Shown: positions 6,844-53,318, counted from the first letter of the stretch. The stretch: DNA of 64,000 nt from Candidatus Aquitaenariimonas noxiae (GCA_002780005.1 PEWV01000075.1:14133-78132), one strand, 5' to 3'. A program made the numbers and translations. Notes: generated by a model not told the origin, from the letters alone.

Positions 6844-8598
6844 TTACCTCGCCAAAACTGAGCGTATTTCAAATTTCAGAACATCTTTTCCATCGTAACT
6901 TGCCTTACTCGATGAAGAGAGGCTCGTTGCATTAAAAAACGGGGATGCTTCTAATTTTTCCATAAATCCCATCAGATCGCCTTCCAAGTTTTGCGGCGCC
7001 GTAACAACATATCCGTTTAAAATCAATAAATTCTTTTCCTGATTGATCTCTAATGATTCCAATAAGCAGCTCGGAGGCGTAATATTGCTGAGCTCCTTCA
7101 ACACCCAGTCGGGCGGCATCTTATCGCGTTCTATTTGTTCAACAAGAGTTAGTTTTGAAGCAACTTTATTATTTAAATCGCTTATCGCGCCTATAGCTTC
7201 TAAATGAAGTCTCGCATTTTTAAGCCTATTTTTATAGTCATTCACTTCCGACCTAACTACTACTAGGGAGAACAGAAATACAACACCGAGCACCACGCCT
7301 ATGACCCTTAGGGACATTTTTTGCAGGGCTTCCGCTTTCTCGGTCTTGTATTCTTTAGGCAAGAAGCTCGGGCTTTTGCCAGCGCCTATCGCTGCGCCTG
7401 TGAGGTTGTTCAGTTGCGCCATACCTTTATTTCGCGCATCTTTATCTATATTTTGTTTCGTGGCAATAATATTCGTCAAGGATAGTTTTCTCACATTGCA
7501 TTTTAATTCGTTTTGCAAATATACATCCAGGCCTTTTAAATTTGAGCCTCCGCCTGTAAGAAATAAATTTTGCGGAAATTCGTCTTCGAATTTTGAAACA
7601 TAGTAATTTATGGATCTATTTATTTCCGATATTAGCCTCTCAAGGGCGGGCCTCATCAAAGATATGATCTGGCTTCCTTTAATACCGTCTTTCAGTACCT
7701 CTTCCGGGTCTCGGGGGATGCCGAACTCTATTTTCATTTCTTCGGCCTTCTGGGTTGTTAATTCTATTTTGCCGGCGTCCGATACTAGCGTCCCGCTCAT
7801 ACCCATAGTAAGCTGATCTGAACTGAAAGGCAGGTTTCGCAGGAAACTCAATTTGCACTCTTTGTAAATCAAAAATGTAGAGAATGTTGCTCCTATATCA
7901 AGGACCGAGGCTGTACCGCTTTTCGGAATTTCGAGCTTCTCTAAAACATACGAGAAGATATACGAGAAATTAAAAGGCATTAACTTTATGTCTACCACGT
8001 TTAGGCCTGCTTCTTTTATAGGCTTGGCGTACTTGTCTATAAAATCATTTTTTACGCACCCCACCATTATATCTTTTCTTTTCGCTCCGTCTTTATCGGT
8101 GTATTCACCTATGATTTGCCAATCGATTTGAGCCTGCTCTAAATCAAACGGCGCATCACCCTTAATTTCCCATTTGATGGCCTCTTCCATCTCTCTCTGG
8201 GGCATATTCGGCAAAGATATCCTCTTCATTATCACCGAATCTAAATCCTGTGCGTTGATTATAATATCTTTATCTAATATGGAATTAACAGTTATAAAAT
8301 TATTTATAAAATCGAGAATGGCTTTATTATTATCCTCTGAATCGGATGAGCCCAACTCTTTTATATCATACTGCAGAAGTTCAGGCATGTCTTTTGACAG
8401 GCAAAAGAGAGCGATTTTAAGGGTGCGACTTCCTATGTCTAAGGATAAAATTTTACCTTTTTCTTTAGAAAAGATGCCTGTCAGCTCAGGGTTTTTACGT
8501 TTACACAAATTACCGTAGCTTTTAATAAACTGGTCATACAACTTAGTGATTATCTGCACAGGATCATTTGGCAATTGGAATCTTTTACTTGAGATCAT
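6844..8598 (-). CDS. pilMN: PilM-PilN fusion protein (actin-like ATPase domain plus bitopic PilN domain)
   Basis: LSLDIGSRTLKIALF sugar-kinase/actin-like N-terminal domain. Internal TM (LRVIGVVLGVVFLFSLVVV) followed by a PilN-like region. Confidence 0.8.
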   Translation of the reverse strand: MISSKRFQLPNDPVQIITKLYDQFIKSYGNLCKRKNPELTGIFSKEKGKILSLDIGSRTLKIALFCLSKDMPELLQYDIKELGSSDSEDNNKAILDFINNFITVNSILDKDIIINAQDLDSVIMKRISLPNMPQREMEEAIKWEIKGDAPFDLEQAQIDWQIIGEYTDKDGAKRKDIMVGCVKNDFIDKYAKPIKEAGLNVVDIKLMPFNFSYIFSYVLEKLEIPKSGTASVLDIGATFSTFLIYKECKLSFLRNLPFSSDQLTMGMSGTLVSDAGKIELTTQKAEEMKIEFGIPRDPEEVLKDGIKGSQIISLMRPALERLISEINRSINYYVSKFEDEFPQNLFLTGGGSNLKGLDVYLQNELKCNVRKLSLTNIIATKQNIDKDARNKGMAQLNNLTGAAIGAGKSPSFLPKEYKTEKAEALQKMSLRVIGVVLGVVFLFSLVVVRSEVNDYKNRLKNARLHLEAIGAISDLNNKVASKLTLVEQIERDKMPPDWVLKELSNITPPSCLLESLEINQEKNLLILNGYVVTAPQNLEGDLMGFMEKLEASPFFNATSLSSSSKASYDGKDVLKFEIRSVLAR

Positions 8599-10391: not shown

Positions 10392-10991
10392 TTAAGAAAA
10401 TAGGTCCGAGACCTGTAGAATATTACGAAGCCTTATTTTTGTCCTGAAATAAACGGTATTGTTATTGGATGAGAGCGACATGTCAATTTGCACAAATCTT
10501 ATGTCAGTCGCCTGCGGGCTTACTAAAGGAGCTGGGATAACGTCTCCGTTCCCATCCAGGTATGAGAAGGTAAACGAGGAAACGTTTGAAACAAGCGTGT
10601 CGGCTGTGCCGTTATAGCTTCTTTCCAGATTTGATCCGTTAAGCTGGAATTGCATAGTATTATTATCTATGTCGACGAAACTATAGGAGGTAGCATTAGC
10701 TGTGATTACGCTTGTATTGTTTTTCAGACGACGTATCTCACGGCTCATTCTTCTAAAAGCTGTCTCGGCGCTTTGTGATAAATCTTTCCTATGTATGCTG
10801 TACTTATATGAGTCAACCAATTTAATAGCAACAGGGCCGCCGATACCTACTAATAGGCCTATGATAACTATGACCATTATTAGCTCGATCAGAGTAAACC
10901 CCGTTAGAGATGGGTTGTGTTCACCCATCGGACCTTTAATAGTGCTACGTTTAATGAAAAATTTACTTTTATCAATAATTATCTTGACCAT
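10392..10991 (-). CDS. minor (pseudo)pilin with prepilin-type N-terminal cleavage/methylation domain; 30-aa leader
   Basis: Leader ...EHNPSLTG then FTLIELIMVIVIIGLLVG (G-1, F+1, E+5). Confidence 0.8.
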   Translation of the reverse strand: MVKIIIDKSKFFIKRSTIKGPMGEHNPSLTGFTLIELIMVIVIIGLLVGIGGPVAIKLVDSYKYSIHRKDLSQSAETAFRRMSREIRRLKNNTSVITANATSYSFVDIDNNTMQFQLNGSNLERSYNGTADTLVSNVSSFTFSYLDGNGDVIPAPLVSPQATDIRFVQIDMSLSSNNNTVYFRTKIRLRNILQVSDLFS

Positions 10992-11091
10992 TTTTAGTAA
11001 GATATATTTTTATCTCTAACGGGGTAAACCCGTGCTTAGGTTTTAGGTGATAGGTTATAGGTGATAGGTGTTTTAACATTTTTAAATAGAA

Positions 11092-11568
11092 TCAGTTATT
11101 GGTTGCCAGCGTTACTGCCTCAACACTGGGAAATCCCGGGCGCGAAACTGTTATTTGGATTCTTTTATAGTTTGTAGAAGGGCTAGCGCTCAGCGTATTT
11201 AAATTTCCGCTGTCTACATAATAATAACTCACTTGATGTGAATAATCGCTGAAATTACCCGTGTACTCGGTCGGGCCCTCATTAACAACGTTAGAAAATC
11301 TCAAGTTCGTCACGCGTTCCAATTCGCTTTCTAATAGCGAAGACACTGCTATAAAATGTTCCGGTAAAAATGCGTTTTGCACTGATTCTATAATTACAAC
11401 CGAGACGGGAATTAATATAACAGAAGCAATAACGATCGTCATTATTAATTCTATAAGAGTAAGCCCTTTATCGGAGTTTCGATATTTCCCGCTTTTGCGG
11501 GATCCCGCACATGTATGTCCAAGGCTTGGTATAGGCGGGACGTATTTCGAATTTCGTATTTTTCTCAC
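11092..11568 (-). CDS. minor (pseudo)pilin; 34-aa leader
   Basis: ...NSDKG then LTLIELIMTIVIASVILIP. ATG overlaps the stop of the upstream pilin (ATGA), supporting this start. Confidence 0.75.
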   Translation of the reverse strand: MRKIRNSKYVPPIPSLGHTCAGSRKSGKYRNSDKGLTLIELIMTIVIASVILIPVSVVIIESVQNAFLPEHFIAVSSLLESELERVTNLRFSNVVNEGPTEYTGNFSDYSHQVSYYYVDSGNLNTLSASPSTNYKRIQITVSRPGFPSVEAVTLATNN

Positions 11569-12119
11569 TGTATATACACCCTGCCTGTTCCTCTCTCAAC
11601 CATTATATTTTTAGGACCTGTGATCGTTACGTTAGCCGGATTATTAAGCGCGGTACCACTGCCAGAACCGGCATCATAGCTATAGGGGTCCCCCCATTTG
11701 TCAAATGCCAGATCCTTATTGTTGTCATTAAAATAGACCTCTGTTATGTCAATGCCTTGGAATTCGCTCTCGTTAAACTGAACGGTGTAGTTATTTTTCG
11801 TTAATGGGTTGATCACTAAACTCCAATTTCCCGGGGTATCTTCTATGTAGACTGAGTAGCGATGTTGTGACGTGCTAAATGAGATCCGAGTCCTTTTTTG
11901 AATACTTACGGCTAGCGATTGCGCGTATCTTATGTCCGATTGAATTTTTTGCGCTGCCATATCCGAGCGCATAGCCGGCATATCGACCATCCTTGCGCTT
12001 GCCAGAACAGCCAAAATGCCGATAATGGCCATTACCATTATAAGCTCGAGAAGGGTAAACCCCGTTAGAAAGGCCCTACCCTTTTCATCAGGAATTGAAA
12101 TTCTGTTTGTTTCATCCAT
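11565..12119 (-). CDS. minor (pseudo)pilin (GspH/FimT-like); 19-aa leader
   Basis: ...GRAFLTG then FTLLELIMVMAIIGILA. Confidence 0.8.
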   Translation of the reverse strand: MDETNRISIPDEKGRAFLTGFTLLELIMVMAIIGILAVLASARMVDMPAMRSDMAAQKIQSDIRYAQSLAVSIQKRTRISFSTSQHRYSVYIEDTPGNWSLVINPLTKNNYTVQFNESEFQGIDITEVYFNDNNKDLAFDKWGDPYSYDAGSGSGTALNNPANVTITGPKNIMVERGTGRVYIQ

Positions 12120-12234
12120 ACTATCTATAAATCGCGCACCCCATTAAAAAGCATCTTTGTAATGAGATAAAGCTTTCTAACGGGGTAAACCCTCGTTTCA
12201 TATATAACATTTTCGGATGCTTCCCAATTACAGA

Positions 12235-12608
12235 TTACTGCTCGACAAATGAACCGTCGACATTGGAGTACGCATAAATGCCTCCGGCCGGACCAACGTA
12301 TTGGCTTGAGGCGTTTTTGGTCCACTCGCTTGTTATGCCGCCCTGGGAAAGAACCACAGTGAAAAACGCATTCGCCTTTGAGGCTGTCGAACTAGCAGCG
12401 GCAGCATCTAAATTGGCCGGCCATGCCTTATTTTGAGCGTAATAGGTATGGATACCTGCCCTGACGCCTCCTACCACACCCTTCTCGGCGGCTGATTTGG
12501 CATCGTTTTGCAGATCATAATATTTTGGGATCGCAACTGCTGCCAAAATACCCAATATAACAATAACCATGACTAATTCTATGAGCGTAAAACCCTTTTT
12601 CCGAACAT
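12235..12608 (-). CDS. pilA: major type IVa pilin (PilA-like), apparent +1 frameshift between SD-led ATG and the pilin frame
   Basis: GGAGGTAAAAATG at 12608 is 1 nt out of frame with the pilin body (KKGFTLIELVMVIVILGILAAVAIP...). One extra A in the A5 run (T5 at 12596-12600 on the plus strand) would give the classic leader MFGKKG/FTLIEL. ORF-track ORF 12235..12570 starts only at the internal Met. Confidence 0.6.
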
Positions 12609-12734
12609 TTTTACCTCCGTCAGGATTAATTTCAGCTCTTCATATTCTCTTTTTCTTTAACCGATCACCCCCCTAGCAAACCGTAATAAAAGTTATTTTC
12701 GGATCCAAAAATCGTTAAACCGCGTTTCGCCCTC

Positions 12735-25532: not shown

Positions 25533-26216
25533 TTACTTAAAAATAAAGCCTGTCTGGTTAGACCAGAATAAAAGATCGAGTTCTTCGACCGGAATATTTA
25601 AAGAATCGGAGAATTTTCGCATTTTGCTTTCGATTTCGAGATAGGTTTTTTTCGTTATGGCGCGCGGTATTTCTTTTATAACTTTATATCGCTTTAAATT
25701 CTTCAATATATGTACGTCCAGTATGGACATATTTCTGCCAAGGCCTATATTCCTCAAAAAATGGCTCGCTTCTTTATATCCGAGGCCCTTTACGTTCTTA
25801 ACAAGCCATTCCCTAACTCTAAAAGTATCATTTATATCTAATATTTTCTTTATCTCTATCCTTTTCCCGTGTTTGAAAATATTACGCGCGCCTATCAGGT
25901 AACCTGTCTTATTATTAGGGAACCTGACTTTTTGCAGCTTAGACCTCACGGCGCGCTTGCCGCCATTAAAAAGCAGTCTTGATCTTTTCAGTTCTTTAAT
26001 AGCCTGGCCGCAATAAACTGCTTTTGATTGAGGGGTCAATAAACAAAAACATAGTTCTGAAAAAACATTTTCATCGTCGGATTTGTGAATATTTTCAAAC
26101 TCTTTTAGCCTTTGTTTTATGTGATGCTTTTTATCCTTGTAAACCTTGATCAGGTCTTTCGCCCCGTTAGAAATACAAATTTCTTTACAATTATTATAAT
26201 TATAGCGTTCTGCCAT
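25533..26216 (-). CDS. N-glycosylase/DNA lyase (Ogg2-type 8-oxoguanine DNA glycosylase, HhH-GPD)
   Basis: 227 aa; GYKEASHFLRNIGLG...ILDVHIL HhH region. Start overlaps trxB stop (TAATG). Confidence 0.5.
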   Translation of the reverse strand: MAERYNYNNCKEICISNGAKDLIKVYKDKKHHIKQRLKEFENIHKSDDENVFSELCFCLLTPQSKAVYCGQAIKELKRSRLLFNGGKRAVRSKLQKVRFPNNKTGYLIGARNIFKHGKRIEIKKILDINDTFRVREWLVKNVKGLGYKEASHFLRNIGLGRNMSILDVHILKNLKRYKVIKEIPRAITKKTYLEIESKMRKFSDSLNIPVEELDLLFWSNQTGFIFK

Positions 26217-41615: not shown

Positions 41616-41677
41616 GTTTACCCCGTTAGAGATTTATTCTCCAACGGGATAAACCCCAATCTCTAACGGGGTTTAAC
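41616..41677. repeat. hairpin built from two inverted copies of the ATCTCTAACGGGGT motif (14-bp perfect stem, 25-nt loop containing a third degenerate copy)
   Basis: ACCCCGTTAGAGAT 41620-41633 and ATCTCTAACGGGGT 41659-41672. Confidence 0.8.
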
Positions 41678-42194: not shown

Positions 42195-42203
42195 AGAAGA
42201 AAA

Positions 42204-43577
42204 TTATTTTTTTTCCAGGATGCATTTTGACATTCTACCGCAGGGTTTGGCCGGGTAATTCCCATCAAAACAGGCCGTGCAGAATTCCTCTTTCGGGATC
42301 GGCATGGATTTGAGCATACCTTCTTTGCTTAAATACTCAAGGCTATCCAGACCGATAAAATCTTTTATCCATTTTATGCTGTGATTCGACGCTATTAATT
42401 CCTTTTTAGTCGGGAAATCTATACCGTAAAAACACGGGAACCTAAGCGGCGGACAGCTTACCCGCATATGGACTTCTTTAGCTCCAGCTTCCCGCAGTGT
42501 CTTTACCCTGACCCTGCTCGTTGTCCCGCGGACTATAGAATCTTCTATAATAACTGTGCGCTTATTTCTTAGGACATCTTTTATCGGATTAAGTTTTACC
42601 CTGACTCTGAAATCCCTTATAAACTGTGACGGCTGAATAAATGTCCTCCCAACATAATGGTTCCTTATCAAGGCTGCTTCATATGGGATCCCGGATTCTT
42701 CTGAAAAACCTAAAGCGGCGTAATTCCCCGAATCGGGCACAGGCATCACGAAATCGCCTTTAGCGGGAAATTCTTTTGCCAGCTGCTTGCCCAAACGCTT
42801 CCGGGTTAAATAAACATTCTGGCCAAAAATATTGCTATCGGGCCTGGCAAAATATATATATTCAAATATGCAAAACGAATGTTTCTTTCCAGAAAAAGGT
42901 TTTTGAGACTCTATGCCTTTCTTGCTTATAAAAACTATCTCACCTGGCTCAACTTCCCTGATATATTCCGCATTTATCAAGTCTAGCGCGCAGGTTTCGC
43001 TCGCCAATACATAGGCATCGTCCAATTTACCGATACAAAGCGGCCTCCATCCGCCCGGATCCCTTGCTCCGGCCAAGTATCCGTTAAGCATGAGTACAAG
43101 CGAATACGCCCCTTCAAGCCCGGATAAGGCGTCAACAAGATTTTGCCTGTGGTCCGGGCTTTGTGATTTAGCTAAAAGATGAACTATTGTTTCGGAATCC
43201 ATTGTAGTCTGAAAGATAGAACCCCTACCTTCCATATCATGTCGCAGCTTGAAAGCATTTGTAAGGTTACCGTTATGAGCGATAGCTATATGCCCCTTAC
43301 TATGGTTTACAGAGAACGGCTGGATGTTTTTGGAAATGCTTGAACCTGTCGTTGAATAGCGAACATGTCCTATCGCTACGTCGCCGCGCAGCGACTTTAT
43401 GCTTTTTTCATCAAATACATCTCCGACCAGGCCCATACCCTTATGGGACATGATCTTTTTTTCGCTTGAGACAACTATGCCTGCGCTTTCTTCGCCGCGA
43501 TGCTGGAGCGCGTAAAGGCCCAGATAAGTAAGCCGCGCCGCGTCTTTATGCCCATATATACCGAATATCCCGCACAT
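42204..43577 (-). CDS. purF: amidophosphoribosyltransferase
   Basis: MCGIFGIYGH Ntn-Cys start; PRT domain; C-terminal Fe-S Cys. Confidence 0.9.
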   Translation of the reverse strand: MCGIFGIYGHKDAARLTYLGLYALQHRGEESAGIVVSSEKKIMSHKGMGLVGDVFDEKSIKSLRGDVAIGHVRYSTTGSSISKNIQPFSVNHSKGHIAIAHNGNLTNAFKLRHDMEGRGSIFQTTMDSETIVHLLAKSQSPDHRQNLVDALSGLEGAYSLVLMLNGYLAGARDPGGWRPLCIGKLDDAYVLASETCALDLINAEYIREVEPGEIVFISKKGIESQKPFSGKKHSFCIFEYIYFARPDSNIFGQNVYLTRKRLGKQLAKEFPAKGDFVMPVPDSGNYAALGFSEESGIPYEAALIRNHYVGRTFIQPSQFIRDFRVRVKLNPIKDVLRNKRTVIIEDSIVRGTTSRVRVKTLREAGAKEVHMRVSCPPLRFPCFYGIDFPTKKELIASNHSIKWIKDFIGLDSLEYLSKEGMLKSMPIPKEEFCTACFDGNYPAKPCGRMSKCILEKK

Positions 43578-43581
43578 ACAC

Positions 43582-44394
43582 TTATATCCTCACAGGAATG
43601 CCTCTATCCTTAAGGTATTCCTTTGCCTCTCTGATCGAATATTTCCCGTAATGAAAAATAGATGCCGCAAGAACGGCATCAGCCCTGCCTGTTGTTAGCG
43701 CCTCATAAAGATGTTCTAAATCCCCTGCGCCGCCCGATGCTATAACCGGGATATTTACGGTTTCTGATATAGCCTTTGTCAGCTTCAGGTCATAACCCGC
43801 TGTCGTTCCGTCCATATCCATGCTGGTAAGCAGGATCTCGCCGGCCCCTGATCGTTCTGCCTTTTTTGCCCATTCGACCGCGTCAAGGCCGACCGGTTTT
43901 CTACCGCCGTAGGCATATACTTCCCATTTCTTTTTTTTGCTATGGACTATGGACTGTGGGCTGTGGACTAACTTCGCGTCTATGGCAACCACTATGCACT
44001 GGCTGCCAAATTCCTCGGATGCTTCTTTAATCAATGTAGGGTTTTCTATTGCCGCTGTATTTATAGAAACCTTATCGGCCCCAGATTTCAAGAGCTGTCT
44101 TATATCGCTTATATTTCGAATGCCGCCTCCAACCGTCAAAGGTATAAAGACCTGCTCTGCTGTTTTTATGACCACATCTAAAAATGCCTGGCGTTTTTCA
44201 ACGCTTGCTGTTATGTCTAAGAATACTACTTCGTCCGCGCCTTCTTTGGAATAGAAGGCTGCTGTCTTGACAGGGTCTCCCGTGTCTTTAAGGTCCAGGA
44301 AATTAATACCCTTCACAACTCTTCCGTCTTTTACATCCAGGCATGGTATTATTCTTTTAGTCAGCCCCGTTAGAAACTTAGCTCTTTCTACCAT
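43582..44394 (-). CDS. hisF: imidazole glycerol phosphate synthase cyclase subunit HisF
   Basis: [16 protein letters not shown] ... full HisF barrel. Carries the N-terminal extension [13 protein letters not shown] and an internal [14 protein letters not shown] segment encoded by heptamer repeats. Confidence 0.9.
43941..43968. repeat. 4 x 7-nt tandem repeat T(A/G)TGG(A/G)C inside hisF, next to a T8 run (43931-43938)
   Basis: TATGGAC TATGGAC TGTGGGC TGTGGAC. Confidence 0.8.
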
Positions 44395-44466
44395 AATATT
44401 TATTCTCCATCCCCATTAAGAAAACATAAGCCATATTCAGCAAACCAAAACGTTTCTAACGGGGTT
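44365..44466. repeat. inverted pair of the CCCCGTTAGAAAC / GTTTCTAACGGGG motif bracketing the hisF start codon
   Basis: 13-bp perfect inverted repeat: 44366-44378 (inside hisF codons 6-10) and 44452-44464 (5' UTR). Confidence 0.8.
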
Positions 44467-45085
44467 AGCATAGTTTGCAAAAATTCTCCAAAAATTTAAG
44501 GCCCAATTCTGAGCTTTTTTCTGGGTGAAACTGTACGCCCCAAATATTATCCTTATTTACTGCAGAGGCGAAATCTTTCCCATACTTGGTCGTGCCGATT
44601 ATAATTCCTTTATCATCCGGATCAACATAATAGGTGTGAACGAAGTAGAAATATGAATTATCAGCTATGTCTTCAAACAGCTGTGGACTGTGGACTGTGG
44701 ACTGTGGACTTTTTATTTTAACCTCGTTCCATCCCATATGCGGCGTCTTCAATTGCAGATCAAATCTCTTAACTTTTCCTTTTAATATATCGAGGCCTCT
44801 ATGAGTGCCATGCTCCTCGCTTTCCGTAAATAATAATTGCAAACCAAGGCATATGCCTAAAAAAGGTTTGCCGTCTTTAATGATCCTGGTTATAGCAGGC
44901 AGGATATCTAATTCCGTAAGGTTAGCCATGGCCCTGGCAAAGGCGCCTACCCCGGGCAGAACAACGGCTTTAGCGTCGCTCAAATCATTAGGATTATCCG
45001 TAACCTTTGCCTGGGCGCCTACCATCTGGAAAGCTTTACTGACGCTTTTCAGGTTTCCCATGCCATAGTCGATTATCGCTATCAT
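44465..45085 (-). CDS. hisH: imidazole glycerol phosphate synthase glutaminase subunit HisH
   Basis: Class I GATase with GICLGLQLL catalytic Cys and HPEKS. Confidence 0.9.
   Translation of the reverse strand: MIAIIDYGMGNLKSVSKAFQMVGAQAKVTDNPNDLSDAKAVVLPGVGAFARAMANLTELDILPAITRIIKDGKPFLGICLGLQLLFTESEEHGTHRGLDILKGKVKRFDLQLKTPHMGWNEVKIKSPQSTVHSPQLFEDIADNSYFYFVHTYYVDPDDKGIIIGTTKYGKDFASAVNKDNIWGVQFHPEKSSELGLKFLENFCKLC
44682..44709. repeat. perfect 4 x 7-nt tandem repeat TGTGGAC inside hisH (encodes SPQSTVHSPQ)
   Basis: 44682-44709 is TGTGGAC x4 exactly. Confidence 0.9.
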
Positions 45086-45088
45086 ATA

Positions 45089-46629
45089 TTACTCCCACTC
45101 TATCGTAGAAGGCGGCTTGGATGAAATATCATAAACAACCCTGTTGATGCCTTTGACTTCATTTATAATACGGCTCGATATGGTTTCAAGCAACTCGTAG
45201 GGAAGCTTGGCCCAGTGAGCGGTCATTGCGTCTTCGCTCGTCACAGCCCTTACCGCAACCACATTCTCGTAAGTCCTCTCATCACCCATAACCCCTACTG
45301 TTTTTATAGGTAACAATACGCAGAATGACTGCCATAATTTTCTATAAAGGCCACTTCGTTTTATTTCATCTATCAATATCCAGTCGGCTTCCCGTAAAAG
45401 GTCAAGCCTATTCTTAGTGATCTTGTCTATTACGCGAACCGCAAGGCCCGGCCCCGGGAAAGGCTGTCTATAAATAGCTTCTTCCGGCATACCTAGTTCT
45501 TTTCCGAGTAGCCTTACCTCATCTTTAAATAAATCCTTAAGAGGCTCTATCAGTTCAAAATCCATGCGGGAAGGAAGTCCTCCTACATTGTGATGTGTCT
45601 TAATGGTCGCCGAAGGCCCGCCTATCGGGGATTTTGATTCTATTACATCAGGGTATAACGTGCCCTGGGCTAAAAATTTTATTTTCCCCATTTTTTTTGC
45701 TTCTTTCTCAAAAATTCTTATAAATAACTTGCCTATGATCTTGCGTTTTTTCTCAGGGTCCGTGACCCCTTTTAAACCGTTCAAAAAAACTTTACTCGCG
45801 TCGATTACTTTCAGGTTTATACGAAAGTTTTTTCTGAATCTTTTCTCGACAAGCTCGGACTCATGTTTGCGCAACAGCCCGTTATCGATAAAGATGGCGA
45901 CAAGATTTTTACCTATAGCCTTATGAAGAAGCACTGCCAACACCGAAGAATCCACGCCGCCGCTTAACCCGCATAGAACTTTTTCACCGTTTATCCGGTT
46001 TCTTAATTCTTTAATCGTGTTTTGCGCAAAAGAATACATATCCCACGATGGCTTGCATCCTGCTATATTAAATAGAAAATTTTTCAATATGATCTTCCCT
46101 TTTGGCGTGTGAACGACCTCGGGATGGAACTGAACCCCGAAAAAGTTTTTTTCAGGATGTTCCATAGCGGCGACCGGAGAATTTGAGGTGGAGCCTATTA
46201 CCCTAAAGCCCTTTGGCAATTTTGTTATCCTGTCTCCGTGGCTCATCCAGATCGTCTCTTTCGAAAGTAAATCTTTAAACAATGTCTTTTTTGATCTAAT
46301 GCTAAGGGTCGCCTTTCCATATTCCCGTGTCTTAGCCTTAGCAACATTCCCTTCCAATAATTTGGCCATAAGCTGCGCGCCGTAGCATATGCCGAGAACG
46401 GGTATGCCCATATTAAAAATATCCTTATCACATACGGGAGATTTTGCTGCGGTAACGCTGGCAGGGCCGCCTGACAAAATAACCGCTTTTGGTTTGCGAG
46501 CCGAAAGTTCATCCGCCCCTATATTGTAAGGCACTATTCCAGAGTAAACCTTATGCTCGCGTATCCTGCGGGTAATAAGATGGGTGTATTGAGAGCCAAA
46601 ATCTAAAATCGCTATCCAGTCTCTATCCA
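45089..46629 (-). CDS. guaA: GMP synthase (glutamine-hydrolysing)
   Basis: GATase domain (ILDFGSQYT, catalytic GICYG) plus ATP-PPase SGGVDSSV and C-terminal dimerisation domain. Start revised to GTG at 46629 (GGAGGA SD). The ORF-track N-terminal extension overlaps carB. Confidence 0.88.
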
Positions 46630-48287
46630 CGGGACTCGTCCTCCATTTCGTAAGTAGAGTAAAAATACGGCGTATAAGCTTCGAACTCGGCGCCGCAGGT
46701 ATCAACCAGCTTATATGTTGTTTTTATGCCAAATTTGTTGCGCAACTTTCGAATATTATCTTCTTTTGTGCTGACTAAATTTGCGATCTGCTTATCGCTA
46801 AAACCAAACTGTTTTGCTTCGAAAAGCAAGCTCTTAAACATATTGGTATTATATTTACTTTTTGCTTTTTTGATCTTCTTCTCAAGGTCCACTATCTCTT
46901 CAATGTTATGAAGGAACCATCTGTCTATTTTTGTATGCTCGTAGATTTCATCTATATTCATCTTATTTTTTATGGCATATTTTATATAAAAAATCCTCTC
47001 CGCATTCGGGGTTTTTAATCTATCTATAAGTTGTTCGCGTGATACATCAAATTTTAAATCTTCCAAACCGGACACGCCTATCTCAAGTGACCTTAACCCC
47101 TTTTGCAGCGACTCTTTAAAAGTCCTTCCGATAGACATAGCCTCGCCTACGGATTTCATAGATATCGTGAGCGTTGAATCCGCCTGGGAGAATTTTTCAA
47201 ACGTAAAACGAGGAATTTTAACGACACAATAATCGATAGTAGGCTCAAAACATGCCGGCGTTTCCTTCGTAATATCATTCGGGATCTCATCAAGCGTATA
47301 CCCCACGGCCAGTTTCGCTGCTATCTTTGCAATAGGAAACCCCGTTGCCTTGGAAGCCAGGGCCGAACTCCTAGAGACCCTGGGATTCATTTCTATGACT
47401 ACCATTCTACCACTATCGGGGTGAACGGCAAACTGAATATTTGAACCTCCGGTCTCTACGCCGATCTCTCTAATGCAGGCTATCGCGGCATCGCGCATCT
47501 TTTGATATTCCCTATCCGTGAGGGTCTGCACCGGGGCAACTGTAATTGAATCGCCGGTATGGACCCCCATTGGATCAAAGTTTTCTATTGAACATATGAT
47601 AACAACATTATCTCTTTTATCTCTCATCACTTCAAGCTCGAATTCTTTCCAGCCGATAACCGATTCCTCTATTAATATCTCGCTTATCATGCTCGACTCA
47701 AGGCCTCGTTGGGCAATTTTCTTAAACTCCTCTATATTATATGCCACGCCGCCGCCTGTACCGCCCAGTGTGAAGCTCGGACGCACAATTACGGGGAAAC
47801 TGATCCTGCTTATTATCTCGTATGCTTCTTTTAACGTATGGGCTTCTCCGCTTTGGGGCAGATCAAGTCCGATCTTCTGCATTGCTTCTTTAAAAAGCTG
47901 CCTATTTTCGGCCTTTTTAATAGCTTTAATGTTTGCGCCTATAACCTCTACGCCATATTTATCAAAAATTCCGTTTTCGGCCACTTTCACGGTGACATTC
48001 AAGGCCGTCTGGCCTCCGAGCGTAGGCAAAATAGCGTCCGGTTTTTCTTTTTCTATTATTCTTTCAACTATTTCCGGAGTAATAGGCTCAATATATGTTT
48101 TATCCGCCATAACCGGGTCCGTCATTATGGTAGCCGGGTTACTATTCAATAAAACCACTTCAAATCCTTCCGACCTTAATACCTTGCACGCCTGGGTGCC
48201 GGAATAGTCAAATTCGCACGCCTGGCCTATTATGATAGGACCGGAACCGATTATGAGAATCTTTTTTATGTCTGTACGTTTTGGCAT
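46623..48287 (-). CDS. carB: carbamoyl-phosphate synthase large subunit, N-terminal half only (split carB)
   Basis: 554 aa starting [24 protein letters not shown]. Ends ...[20 protein letters not shown], just before the second synthetase domain would begin. guaA follows immediately. Confidence 0.85.
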
Positions 48288-48289
48288 TT

Positions 48290-48366
48290 ATTTTAGCGTT
48301 TAGGGGTTAGCGTCTAGCGTTTAGTACTTTTACTAATCGCTAGCCGCTAATCGCTAGTCGCTGATC
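48290..48366. repeat. compound palindrome of TAGCG-containing repeats in the carA-carB intergenic region
   Basis: TTAGCGTTTAG / TTAGCGTCTAG direct repeats, a CTAGCGTTTAGTA-CTTT-TACTAATCGCTAG inverted core (48314-48343), then TAATCGCTAG(C/T)CGC x2. Confidence 0.7.
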
Positions 48367-48369
48367 CTT

Positions 48370-49458
48370 TCACTTACGCTTTCTTGTTTTCTCCATCAAT
48401 TTGACAAACTCATCAAACAAATACTCCGCGTCATGGGGGCCGGGCGAGGCCTCGGGGTGAAATTGCACGGAGAAAATCGGAAGCTTCTTATGCCTCATCC
48501 CTTCCGATGTTTTATCATTCAAATTTATATGCGTAGTTTCCATCTCTTTTTTATTTAAAGAATCTATATCAACACAAAAACCGTGGTTTTGTGCCGTAAT
48601 AGCTATTTTGCCTGTCTTTAGATCCTTTACCGGATGATTGGCGCCATGATGCCCGAATTTTAACTTGTATGTTTTTCCGCCAAAGGCCAATCCCAGTATC
48701 TGATGTCCGAGACAGATACCGAATATCGGACATTTCCCTACCAAGTTTTTCACGGTTTCAACTACGTAAGGAACTCCTTCCGGGTCCCCGGGGCCGTTTG
48801 AAAGCAGGATCCCGTCAGGCTTAAAAGCCATGATATCTCCTGCGCCTGTCTTTGCCGGGACAACTGTGACCCGGCAATTTCTTCCAGCCAGCTCCCTTAA
48901 TATATTAAATTTAACTCCACAATCTATTACCACAACTTTATATTTTCCTTTGTTGCTCCATTCCCTTACTTTATTAAGGCTGACTTCTTTAACCAGATCC
49001 CTGCCGATAAGACCTTTGGAGGATCTCGCCTTCTGTATCAAACTTTTATCATCCAAGTCTTCGGTGGATAAGACCGCTTTCATCGCACCTTTTAACCTTA
49101 TATGCCTTGTAAGCGCGCGGGTGTCTATGCCTTCAATGCCTATTATGTCGTTTTGTTGAAGGTATTCCTCCAGATCCAACTGGGAGCGCCAATTGCTTGA
49201 AATGCGGCTACGCTCTCTTACTACAAATCCTTCCACAAACGGTTTGCGCGATTCCATATCATCGCTGTTAATGCCGTAATTACCTATCAACGGATATGCC
49301 ATTGTAACAATCTGGCCCTTGTAGGAGGGGTCCGTCAGGATCTCCTGATAACCGGTCATTGAGGTATTAAAAACCACTTCTCCGTATGTGGTTCCTTCGG
49401 CCGCGAACGACTTGCCTTTGAATATCTTGCCATCTTCTAAAACCAATATAGCATTCAT
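48370..49458 (-). CDS. carA: carbamoyl-phosphate synthase small (glutaminase) subunit
   Basis: 362 aa; GICLGHQ catalytic Cys; class I GATase. Confidence 0.9.
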
Positions 49459-49459
49459 A

Positions 49460-53318
<3,859 letters not shown>

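Follow-up and report, generated by a model that had tools for sequence, protein, structure and literature searches.

The start of hisF in the 64,000-nucleotide stretch of DNA analysed here (the window) lies within a pair of inverted repeats that recurs at pilin-like genes, and its product begins with residues reminiscent of a pilin leader, which raises the question of what this repeat is and what it does at the junction of hisH and hisF. The two arms, at 44365-44377 and 44452-44464, are 100% complementary over 13 bp, lie 74 nt apart and enclose both the ribosome-binding site (RBS) and the ATG of hisF; the preliminary description had rightly recognised this pair, with the coordinates of the arm in the coding sequence (44366-44378) shifted by one. 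On the gene strand (-), the hisH stop TAA is followed directly by the upstream arm CCCCGTTAGAAAC (44452..44464, -), then by 57 nt carrying GGAG and by the hisF ATG, from which the opening codons read ATG GTA GAA AGA GCT AAG TTT CTA ACG GGG CTG ACT AAA AGA. The downstream arm GTTTCTAACGGGG (44365..44377, -) runs from the last base of hisF codon 6 to codon 10 and reads (K)FLTG in the hisF frame. It is, as had been proposed, the source of the FLTG-bearing N-terminal extension of HisF (43582..44394, -; 270 aa), whose His_biosynth match (Pfam) begins at residue 14, and most relatives start canonically. The gene directly ahead is hisH (44465..45085, -), which encodes a class-I glutamine amidotransferase of 206 aa. 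Scanning for promoters and terminators gave nothing within the segment bounded by the arms, and Rfam returned chance-level matches only, both for the whole window at gathering thresholds and for 44300-44520 at E values up to 10.

With as many as 2 mismatches allowed, the window holds 9 copies of the 13-mer where 1.45 are expected; a count of 9 was reached in 0 of 100 shuffles, and its abundance is above chance. Its exact 10-mer core TCTAACGGGG is found nine times, as four inverted pairs (10899/11024, 12060/12185, 41621/41671 and 44365/44464) and one solo end at 26162. Gene starts lie within the first two pairs, and both genes match the N-terminal methylation motif, one of them also GspH. The architecture at hisF is indeed that of the pseudopilin genes, and the motif is, as had been proposed, not specific to pilins. 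A 126-bp copy (12060..12185, -) lies in the GspH-type pseudopilin gene (11565..12119), another of 126 bp (10899..11024, -) in the pilin-like gene at 10392..~10931, and a 51-bp copy (41621..41671, strand unassigned) that forms one hairpin is intergenic and shares the 11-mer GGAGAATAAAT with the hisF copy. The solo 13-mer end ATTTCTAACGGGG (26162..26174, -) is perfect and occupies codons 13-17 of an Ogg-type glycosylase gene in another frame (ISNG); a search for its partner arm found none, and it may be a remnant like that of the relative L137 described below, or chance. Altogether, four copies of 51-126 bp and one solo end are present within 64 kb, and the interiors of the copies hold short frames only, with no transposase gene.

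Just outside the arms, all three other copies are flanked by a TTTA/TTTA duplication, and the hisF copy by CTAA/CTGA, which agree in 3 of 4 bases; the duplication is perfect at three of the four copies in the window. Read as an inserted MITE-like element, the hisF segment would comprise 100 bp (44365..44464, -) with the upstream and downstream arms as its left and right terminal inverted repeats and a diverged 4-bp direct repeat around them. The upstream copy of the target-site duplication, CTAA (44465..44468, -), includes the hisH stop TAA (44465-44467), and the downstream copy, CTGA (44361..44364, -), is part of the ancestral codons 2-4 (L T K). The putative ancestral hisF ATG (44469-44471, -) stands just before the CTAA copy; relatives carry TTAG in the place of CTAA. 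The element itself bears the GGAG (44405-44408) and the present hisF ATG (44392-44394; together 44392..44408, -), the ATG lying 30 nt from the right end. An upstream ORF of 23 codons (44400..44471, -) begins at the ancestral hisF ATG, overlaps the hisH stop, crosses the left arm and stops 5 nt ahead of the new hisF ATG. A degenerate internal copy of the right end, GTTTTCTTAATGGGG (44411..44425, -), could form a shorter hairpin with the left end, and the predicted fold of 44400-44475 does pair it with the left arm; an internal end copy, perfect or degenerate, is present at the same place in L011, L012, L134, L220 and the second pilin element.

Comparison with relatives revealed the same site in both occupied and empty form. 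An occupied site reads ATG-TTAG-[element]-TTAG-CTAAAAGG, and an empty relative with a 94% identical HisF reads ATGTTAGCTAAAAGG; at greater length, L134 carries ...agcaatgTTAG[ccccgttagaaat ... ATGAAAAGCGAATCCAAATTTCTAACGGGG]TTAGCTAAAAGGGTTATAG with an element of 101 bp, and the empty L135, with a HisF 94% identical, carries ...ATGTTAGCTAAAAGGGTTATAG (longer view ...agcaATGTTAGCTAAAAGGGTTATAG). The same relation holds between the occupied L013 and the empty L136 (88% identical). When the element and one repeat are taken out, hisF begins ATG TTA GCT AAA AGR (MLAKR) and overlaps the hisH stop, and MLAKR/MLTKR-type canonical starts are found in most of the best 120 relatives of HisF. Removal restores starts at the pilin-like genes as well. 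In the pseudopilin gene (11565..12119), the ancestral ATG at 12199-12201 then opens ATG AAA CGA GGG TTT ACC, that is, MKRG/FTLLEL (a slash marks the point of insertion), and in the pilin-like gene (10392..~10931), the ancestral ATG at 11077-11079 opens MLKHLSPITYHLKPKHG/FTLIEL (...KHG/FTLIEL), where the new ATG, 30 nt from the right end, gives MGEHNPSLTG. Plausible starts are also recovered elsewhere, with RibB becoming MTVT/FSEIPE and YidC becoming MRTV/LTF.

To the scale of many genomes, the pattern CCCCGTTAGA-N78-108-TCTAACGGGG was scanned in one genome per species and gave at least 120 loci. Among the matches listed, perfect 4-bp flanking repeats were present at 64/122 pairs and 5-bp repeats at 0/122, the next 4 bp outward, taken as a control, were identical in 2/122, and about half of the pairs were without a perfect duplication. 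The duplicated tetramers in these matches vary (TAAA, TGAA, TTTA, TCAA, TTCA, TTGA and others) around a consensus T-N-N-A, with T at +1 in 0.79 and A at +4 in 0.80. Conservation covers about 13 nt, (A)(T/C)(T/C)TCTAACGGGG, at both ends, and the interiors vary yet are self-complementary. Nested (L071) and tandem (L081) copies are present, and several loci hold 2-4 copies per 8 kb. All the genome matches listed (at least 120) are MAGs, labelled Omnitrophota, many Patescibacteria groups, Planctomycetota, Deltaproteobacteria/Desulfobacterota, Nitrospirota, Stahlbacteria, Cloacimonadota and others, a list of phyla that mis-binning may inflate; the breadth and the uniformity of the ends in these loci should not be over-read, as exact 10-mers were demanded. 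The window itself represents a groundwater population present in many samples, and its nearest HisF relatives are annotated as Omnitrophota or Ratteibacteria. A scan of viral contigs for the end pair gave 0 matches. Hairpins of 29-31 nt, considered as separate elements, had duplications in 0/7 cases and proved to be the inner left-end hairpins of longer elements. In a Spirochaetia MAG (L057:431-539, QYPD01000002.1), a pair brackets a seemingly complete tRNA gene, with no flanking duplication.

From these features of the sequence, the arms are very probably (probability about 0.85) the terminal inverted repeats of a non-autonomous, MITE-like DNA transposon of ~100 bp that makes a 4-bp T-N-N-A duplication and ends in 5'-CCCCGTTAGA...TCTAACGGGG-3'. 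The copies are short and multicopy, lack an internal transposase, share inverted ends, are flanked by duplications of fixed length and variable sequence, and have occupied and empty sites, as is the case in MITEs. A parent insertion sequence or transposase with the same ends was looked for in 1.74 Mb, among pairs of ends separated by 400-4000 bp that agreed in their extended ends or in their duplications, and beside solo ends, and none was found; Pfam searches with 17 large ORFs adjoining solo ends gave no transposase. In four metagenome contigs (L143, L230, L233 and L254) the short frame MMGIRKFLTGYETLVYSDDESNELVKTI* recurs, and in L233 and L254 it adjoins an ORF of 400-430 aa that has no Pfam match.

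The distribution of the element in HisF relatives was then considered for what it says about its history. A ten-residue extension of the same pattern (MKSESKFLTG, MGKKSKFLTG, MEKKPKFLTG) is present in 12 of the best 120 HisF relatives, and a neighbour-joining tree scatters the extension-bearing proteins among canonical ones, either through several precise losses or through repeated gains at the site. Seven occupied hisF loci were compared (the window, L011, L012, L013, L134, L158 and L220). Their elements measure 68-107 bp, lie at the same TTAG-type site in the same orientation, in relatives with perfect TTAG/TTAG repeats among them, and have interiors alignable in part; all seven carry the ATG at -30 from the right end with a purine-rich stretch ahead of it. 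Arm pairing is 13/13 in 5/7, 12/13 in L012 and ~9/13 in L013. The paired motif proposed for the hisH-hisF spacers of relatives is found in these seven and is missing from the empty L135, L136 and L138, and it is these three, with most of the best 120, that supply the hisF orthologues without extension and upstream arm which had been named beforehand as evidence against a functional motif. L137 holds only the ATG and 27 nt of the right end, its upstream RBS being the same as in the empty relative L138; because it keeps the extension without an upstream arm, the extension is tolerated without that arm and the helix is dispensable. In ten assemblies of the window's species, the hisF spacer and element are identical and in one orientation, and an empty allele of the second pilin site gave 0 matches in JGI metagenomes; nothing therefore points to recent activity in the species. 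In L134 (L134:2957-3110), the ancestral hisF ATG is open through the element without a stop (ML-APLEIVLSYEQVFLFSDEARNKIKMKSESKFLTG-LAKR), and by its reading frame this HisF could contain 36 inserted residues rather than begin at a new start.

The events at hisF may then be pictured as follows. The ancestor would have had overlapping genes, with hisH ending ...TAT GTT AGC TAA and hisF beginning ATG TTA GCT AAA AGR (MLAKR) in the other frame, and insertion at TTAG/CTAA just past the hisF ATG would have severed that ATG from its gene. hisF would now be read from the GGAG and the ATG within the element, 30 nt from the right end; with the start inside the element, the right end would therefore add ...K-F-L-T-G ahead of ancestral codon 2 (L-T-K-R-I-I-P), residues 1-10 being element-derived. 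The left arm might be opened by ribosomes that leave hisH and translate the 23-codon upstream ORF, by which hisF could stay coupled to hisH. The copies of the same family at the pilin-like genes appear to have taken the TTTA within the codons GGG-TTT-AC(N) (G-F-T) as their target.

The preliminary description held that the motif acts on hisF in an RNA-structural or binding-site role, and the rival closest to it is a cis-regulatory RNA in which the 13-bp helix, or the pairing of the internal copy, controls translation initiation of hisF and the pilins or the processing of their mRNA, any likeness to a mobile element being secondary. The RNA from 44355-44475 (-) is predicted to keep the 13-bp helix in a strong fold (-34.4 kcal/mol, z = -4.1) with GGAG and AUG in the loop between the arms, the upstream ORF, which spans the left arm, would permit coupling, and the perfect arms of 5/7 loci despite diverged interiors include one C-G to T-A double change at pair 13. 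Besides, the internal copies differ mostly by C-to-T or A-to-G changes that retain G-U pairs on the sense strand (judged by eye, from few independent events). A leader RNA, however, is expected to be conserved with its gene and to show compensatory pairing, whereas this one is scattered in the HisF tree, is absent with the extension from many hisF orthologues, including relatives with 88-94% identical HisF, and has lost its pairing in L013, where it has decayed, and in L137, which keeps the extension. The same pair also stands around a tRNA gene, in intergenic DNA and within ORFs, Rfam holds no match, and an RNA motif has no use for 4-bp duplications of varying sequence. What surrounds the arms are the hallmarks of transposon ends, namely 4-bp duplications and exact empty sites, and we regard regulation as the reason for the motif as improbable. 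Even in a transposon insertion, the helix may still have a side effect on how hisF is translated, for example via the upstream ORF. A purely neutral old insertion would be expected to decay, yet the arms are perfect in 5/7 loci despite diverged interiors and HisF proteins. Some constraint may therefore act, whether selection on the RNA helix, conversion by other copies or turnover at this position.

The resemblance of HisF to a pilin leader also finds its explanation in the transposon end. In hisF and the pilin genes alike, one reading frame runs through the right end, TTT CTA ACG GGG, and yields FLTG or SLTG; the likeness is limited to these four element-coded residues. Because the pilin insertions lie at the TTTA of GGG-TTT-AC(N), the element closes with a GGG codon, and FTLIEL keeps its preceding glycine. 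In HisF, FLTG is followed by the start of the barrel domain. The mimicry of a pilin leader described earlier is thus one DNA end translated in one frame and not convergence on a pilin signal. A class-III pilin signal peptide in HisF was considered and rejected, since no FTLIE-type segment with E at +5 follows the G. In an Omnitrophota MAG (L026:900-1012), the whole element is open in frame within a pilin leader (MKNNA/FTPLE...SSLTG/FTFIEMF), where cleavage past the element-coded glycine would, judging by the leader sequence, remove the inserted peptide along with the leader.

The same end opens other genes too. A metagenome scan for ATG-N12-AAR-TTTCTAACGGGG gave at least 118 loci, a set that is biased since the search pattern demanded the ATG. 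Among the matches listed, the frame meets a stop codon within 40 codons in 88/118, and an ORF of 90 codons or more begins at the ATG in 16 distinct loci; of the listed matches with a left arm, 40/64 showed a perfect 4-bp duplication. Products of the loci with at least 90 codons were assigned by Pfam for ten and by sequence for the hisF loci. The M-x4-KFLTG start (ATG-N12-AAR-TTT-CTA-ACG-GGG) opens genes for HisF, pilins/T2SS-G, RibBA, UvrB and YidC, and also for a molybdopterin oxidoreductase with a twin-arginine leader, an NTP-transferase and YtxH; a right end with ATG further heads an open frame that runs into UppS. These ATG-bearing copies have a common build of left end, mini-hairpin with a degenerate internal end copy, spacer and the ATG-bearing 30 nt. 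An ATG at -30 as a trait of the whole family was rejected, being found in 2/244 ends of the unbiased long-element set (matches listed) and in 0/18 incidental short pairs. It is at most a trait of one subfamily, and survivorship may have sharpened it, since a copy within the opening codons of an essential gene can last only if it offers a start. Reading outward, 62/244 ends (matches listed) lead into ORFs of 80 codons or longer, which is about what compact genomes give anyway, and no preference for gene starts is claimed.

A bolder view, which we offer tentatively and consider rather unlikely, is that one MITE subfamily, present in MAGs labelled as many uncultivated phyla, is a portable gene-start cassette with precise exit, whose helix ties the invaded gene to the translation of the upstream gene. 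The cassette would consist of the left end, the mini-hairpin of the internal copy, a purine-rich spacer, the ATG, 12 nt and AAR TTT CTA ACG GGG, and it could settle within the first codons of the essential hisF, ribBA, uvrB and yidC genes because it brings its own RBS, ATG and open right end. At the leader/mature junction of pilins its last codon would restore the -1 glycine, and the leftover upstream ORF would link translation to the upstream gene.

Two further explanations fare worse than the cis-regulatory RNA. The 10-mer might be a genomic signature bound by a host protein, such as a pilus DNA-uptake sequence or an operator, given that it is over-represented, often in inverted pairs and present in pilus-rich lineages; DNA-uptake sequences of Neisseria occur in inverted pairs. 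However, the core is found in MAGs labelled as about a dozen phyla whereas uptake sequences are lineage-specific, and the pairs are discrete insertions with duplicated targets and nested copies, which makes a signature highly improbable. Weakest of all, an invertible DNA switch flipping the RBS and ATG segment (phase variation) would suit identical inverted repeats with a shared core around start segments at several loci, as in multi-locus invertase systems, but is hardly credible where ten assemblies of the species are all in one orientation, some pairs lie 9-31 nt apart and are too short for inversion, flanking direct repeats and empty sites indicate insertion, and a phase-varying hisF would be odd. 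REP/REPIN sequences, which are extragenic, moved by RAYT and make no duplication, were ruled out by the duplications and by the copies within coding sequence.

Among known systems, a MITE-like transposon at hisF compares best with bacterial MITEs such as the Correia elements of Neisseria and Chunjie of Geobacter uraniireducens, which are short, lack a transposase and have inverted ends and duplications (PMC10969869). It resembles them in its ~50-130 bp, its hairpin-forming sequence, its several copies per genome and its place in or near operons that are not destroyed. It differs in its end sequence, as compared with the named families by their description, in being found here in MAGs only (about a dozen phyla among the matches listed), and in the subfamily that brings an ATG at 30 nt from its end and lodges among the first codons of essential genes. 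Intragenic MITEs (ERIC, BOX, QMITE1) form in-frame fusions with host ORFs, the extreme case being the Rickettsia palindromic elements (RPE; PMC10969869). Like RPE, the present element is palindromic, mobile and survives in coding genes, where it is read in frame and adds a peptide; unlike RPE, which by their description are internal segments, it usually replaces the start region and supplies a new start with a 10-residue N-terminus, although the elements in the L026 pilin and L134 hisF are also readable straight through. The piggyBac/IS1380 group has a 4-bp TTAA-type target duplication, CCC ends and precise empty sites (piggyBac features: PMC10813416). The element shares with it 4-bp duplications (TAAA, TGAA, TTTA, TCAA, TTAG), ends beginning CCC and apparently precise empty sites, a resemblance only, as no transposase of any family was found beside the ends in the 1.74 Mb searched. 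With leader hairpins of translational control it has in common a stable predicted helix that encloses the RBS and AUG and an upstream ORF crossing one arm; unlike them, it is not conserved in orthologues, brackets unrelated things and is flanked by duplicated target sites. A literature search gave no description of the end sequence or of a KFLTG N-terminus, and nothing relevant on MITEs in Omnitrophota or Patescibacteria. The element thus has an undescribed end sequence, is of the ordinary MITE kind and has the unusual habit of supplying gene starts.

For this locus, a tempting regulatory story gives way to a mobile-element explanation, and the case shows how such insertions are recognised. 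In annotation, proteins beginning M-x4-KFLTG in Omnitrophota, Patescibacteria and other uncultivated lineages should be taken as products of the element and not as lineage-specific signals, and the same goes for pilin-like genes with odd leaders or apparently split starts. The locus is also a clean case from nature in which a transposon has remade the start within an essential, translationally coupled gene pair (HisH/HisF) without being lethal. Were the element to combine its own start signals with precise excision, it would provide a model for how small genomes tolerate transposons in coding sequence.

Apart from the element, several features of the neighbourhood were observed. The region ~42200-52000, together with L001 and L011-L013, holds a glutamine-amidotransferase cluster (purS/purQ/purL, pyrG, carA, carB, guaA, hisH-hisF, purF), with an asparagine or glutamate synthase nearby in relatives, and hisH is followed directly by hisF with no hisA between. 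In L136, a relative with the empty hisF site, a small GIY-YIG ORF (L136:2027-2281) lies between guaA and hisH. Heptanucleotide tandem repeats of ~4 units occur at 44681-44710 (hisH), 43940-43970 (hisF), 11037-11070 and 48292-48366. Those in hisH and hisF lie within the coding sequence and keep its frame, the hisH repeat AGTCCAC x4 coding for SPQSTVHSPQ, and the one at 11037-11070 lies within the ancestral leader ORF of the first pilin gene. In L002 (ERZ27293391 k141_891906), one assembly of the window's species, hisH (7912-8325) has 3 units of AGTCCAC against 4, and the resulting frameshift leaves a HisH of 137 aa; this is either real variation in copy number or an assembly error. The major pilin gene at 12235.. 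(start ~12570-12620, -) has a sole ATG (MFGKRVLRS*) that is out of frame with the GFTLIELVMVIV... body, and the run GGAAAAAGGG stands at the junction of ATG and body, the cause being a frameshift, a slippery run or a sequencing error.
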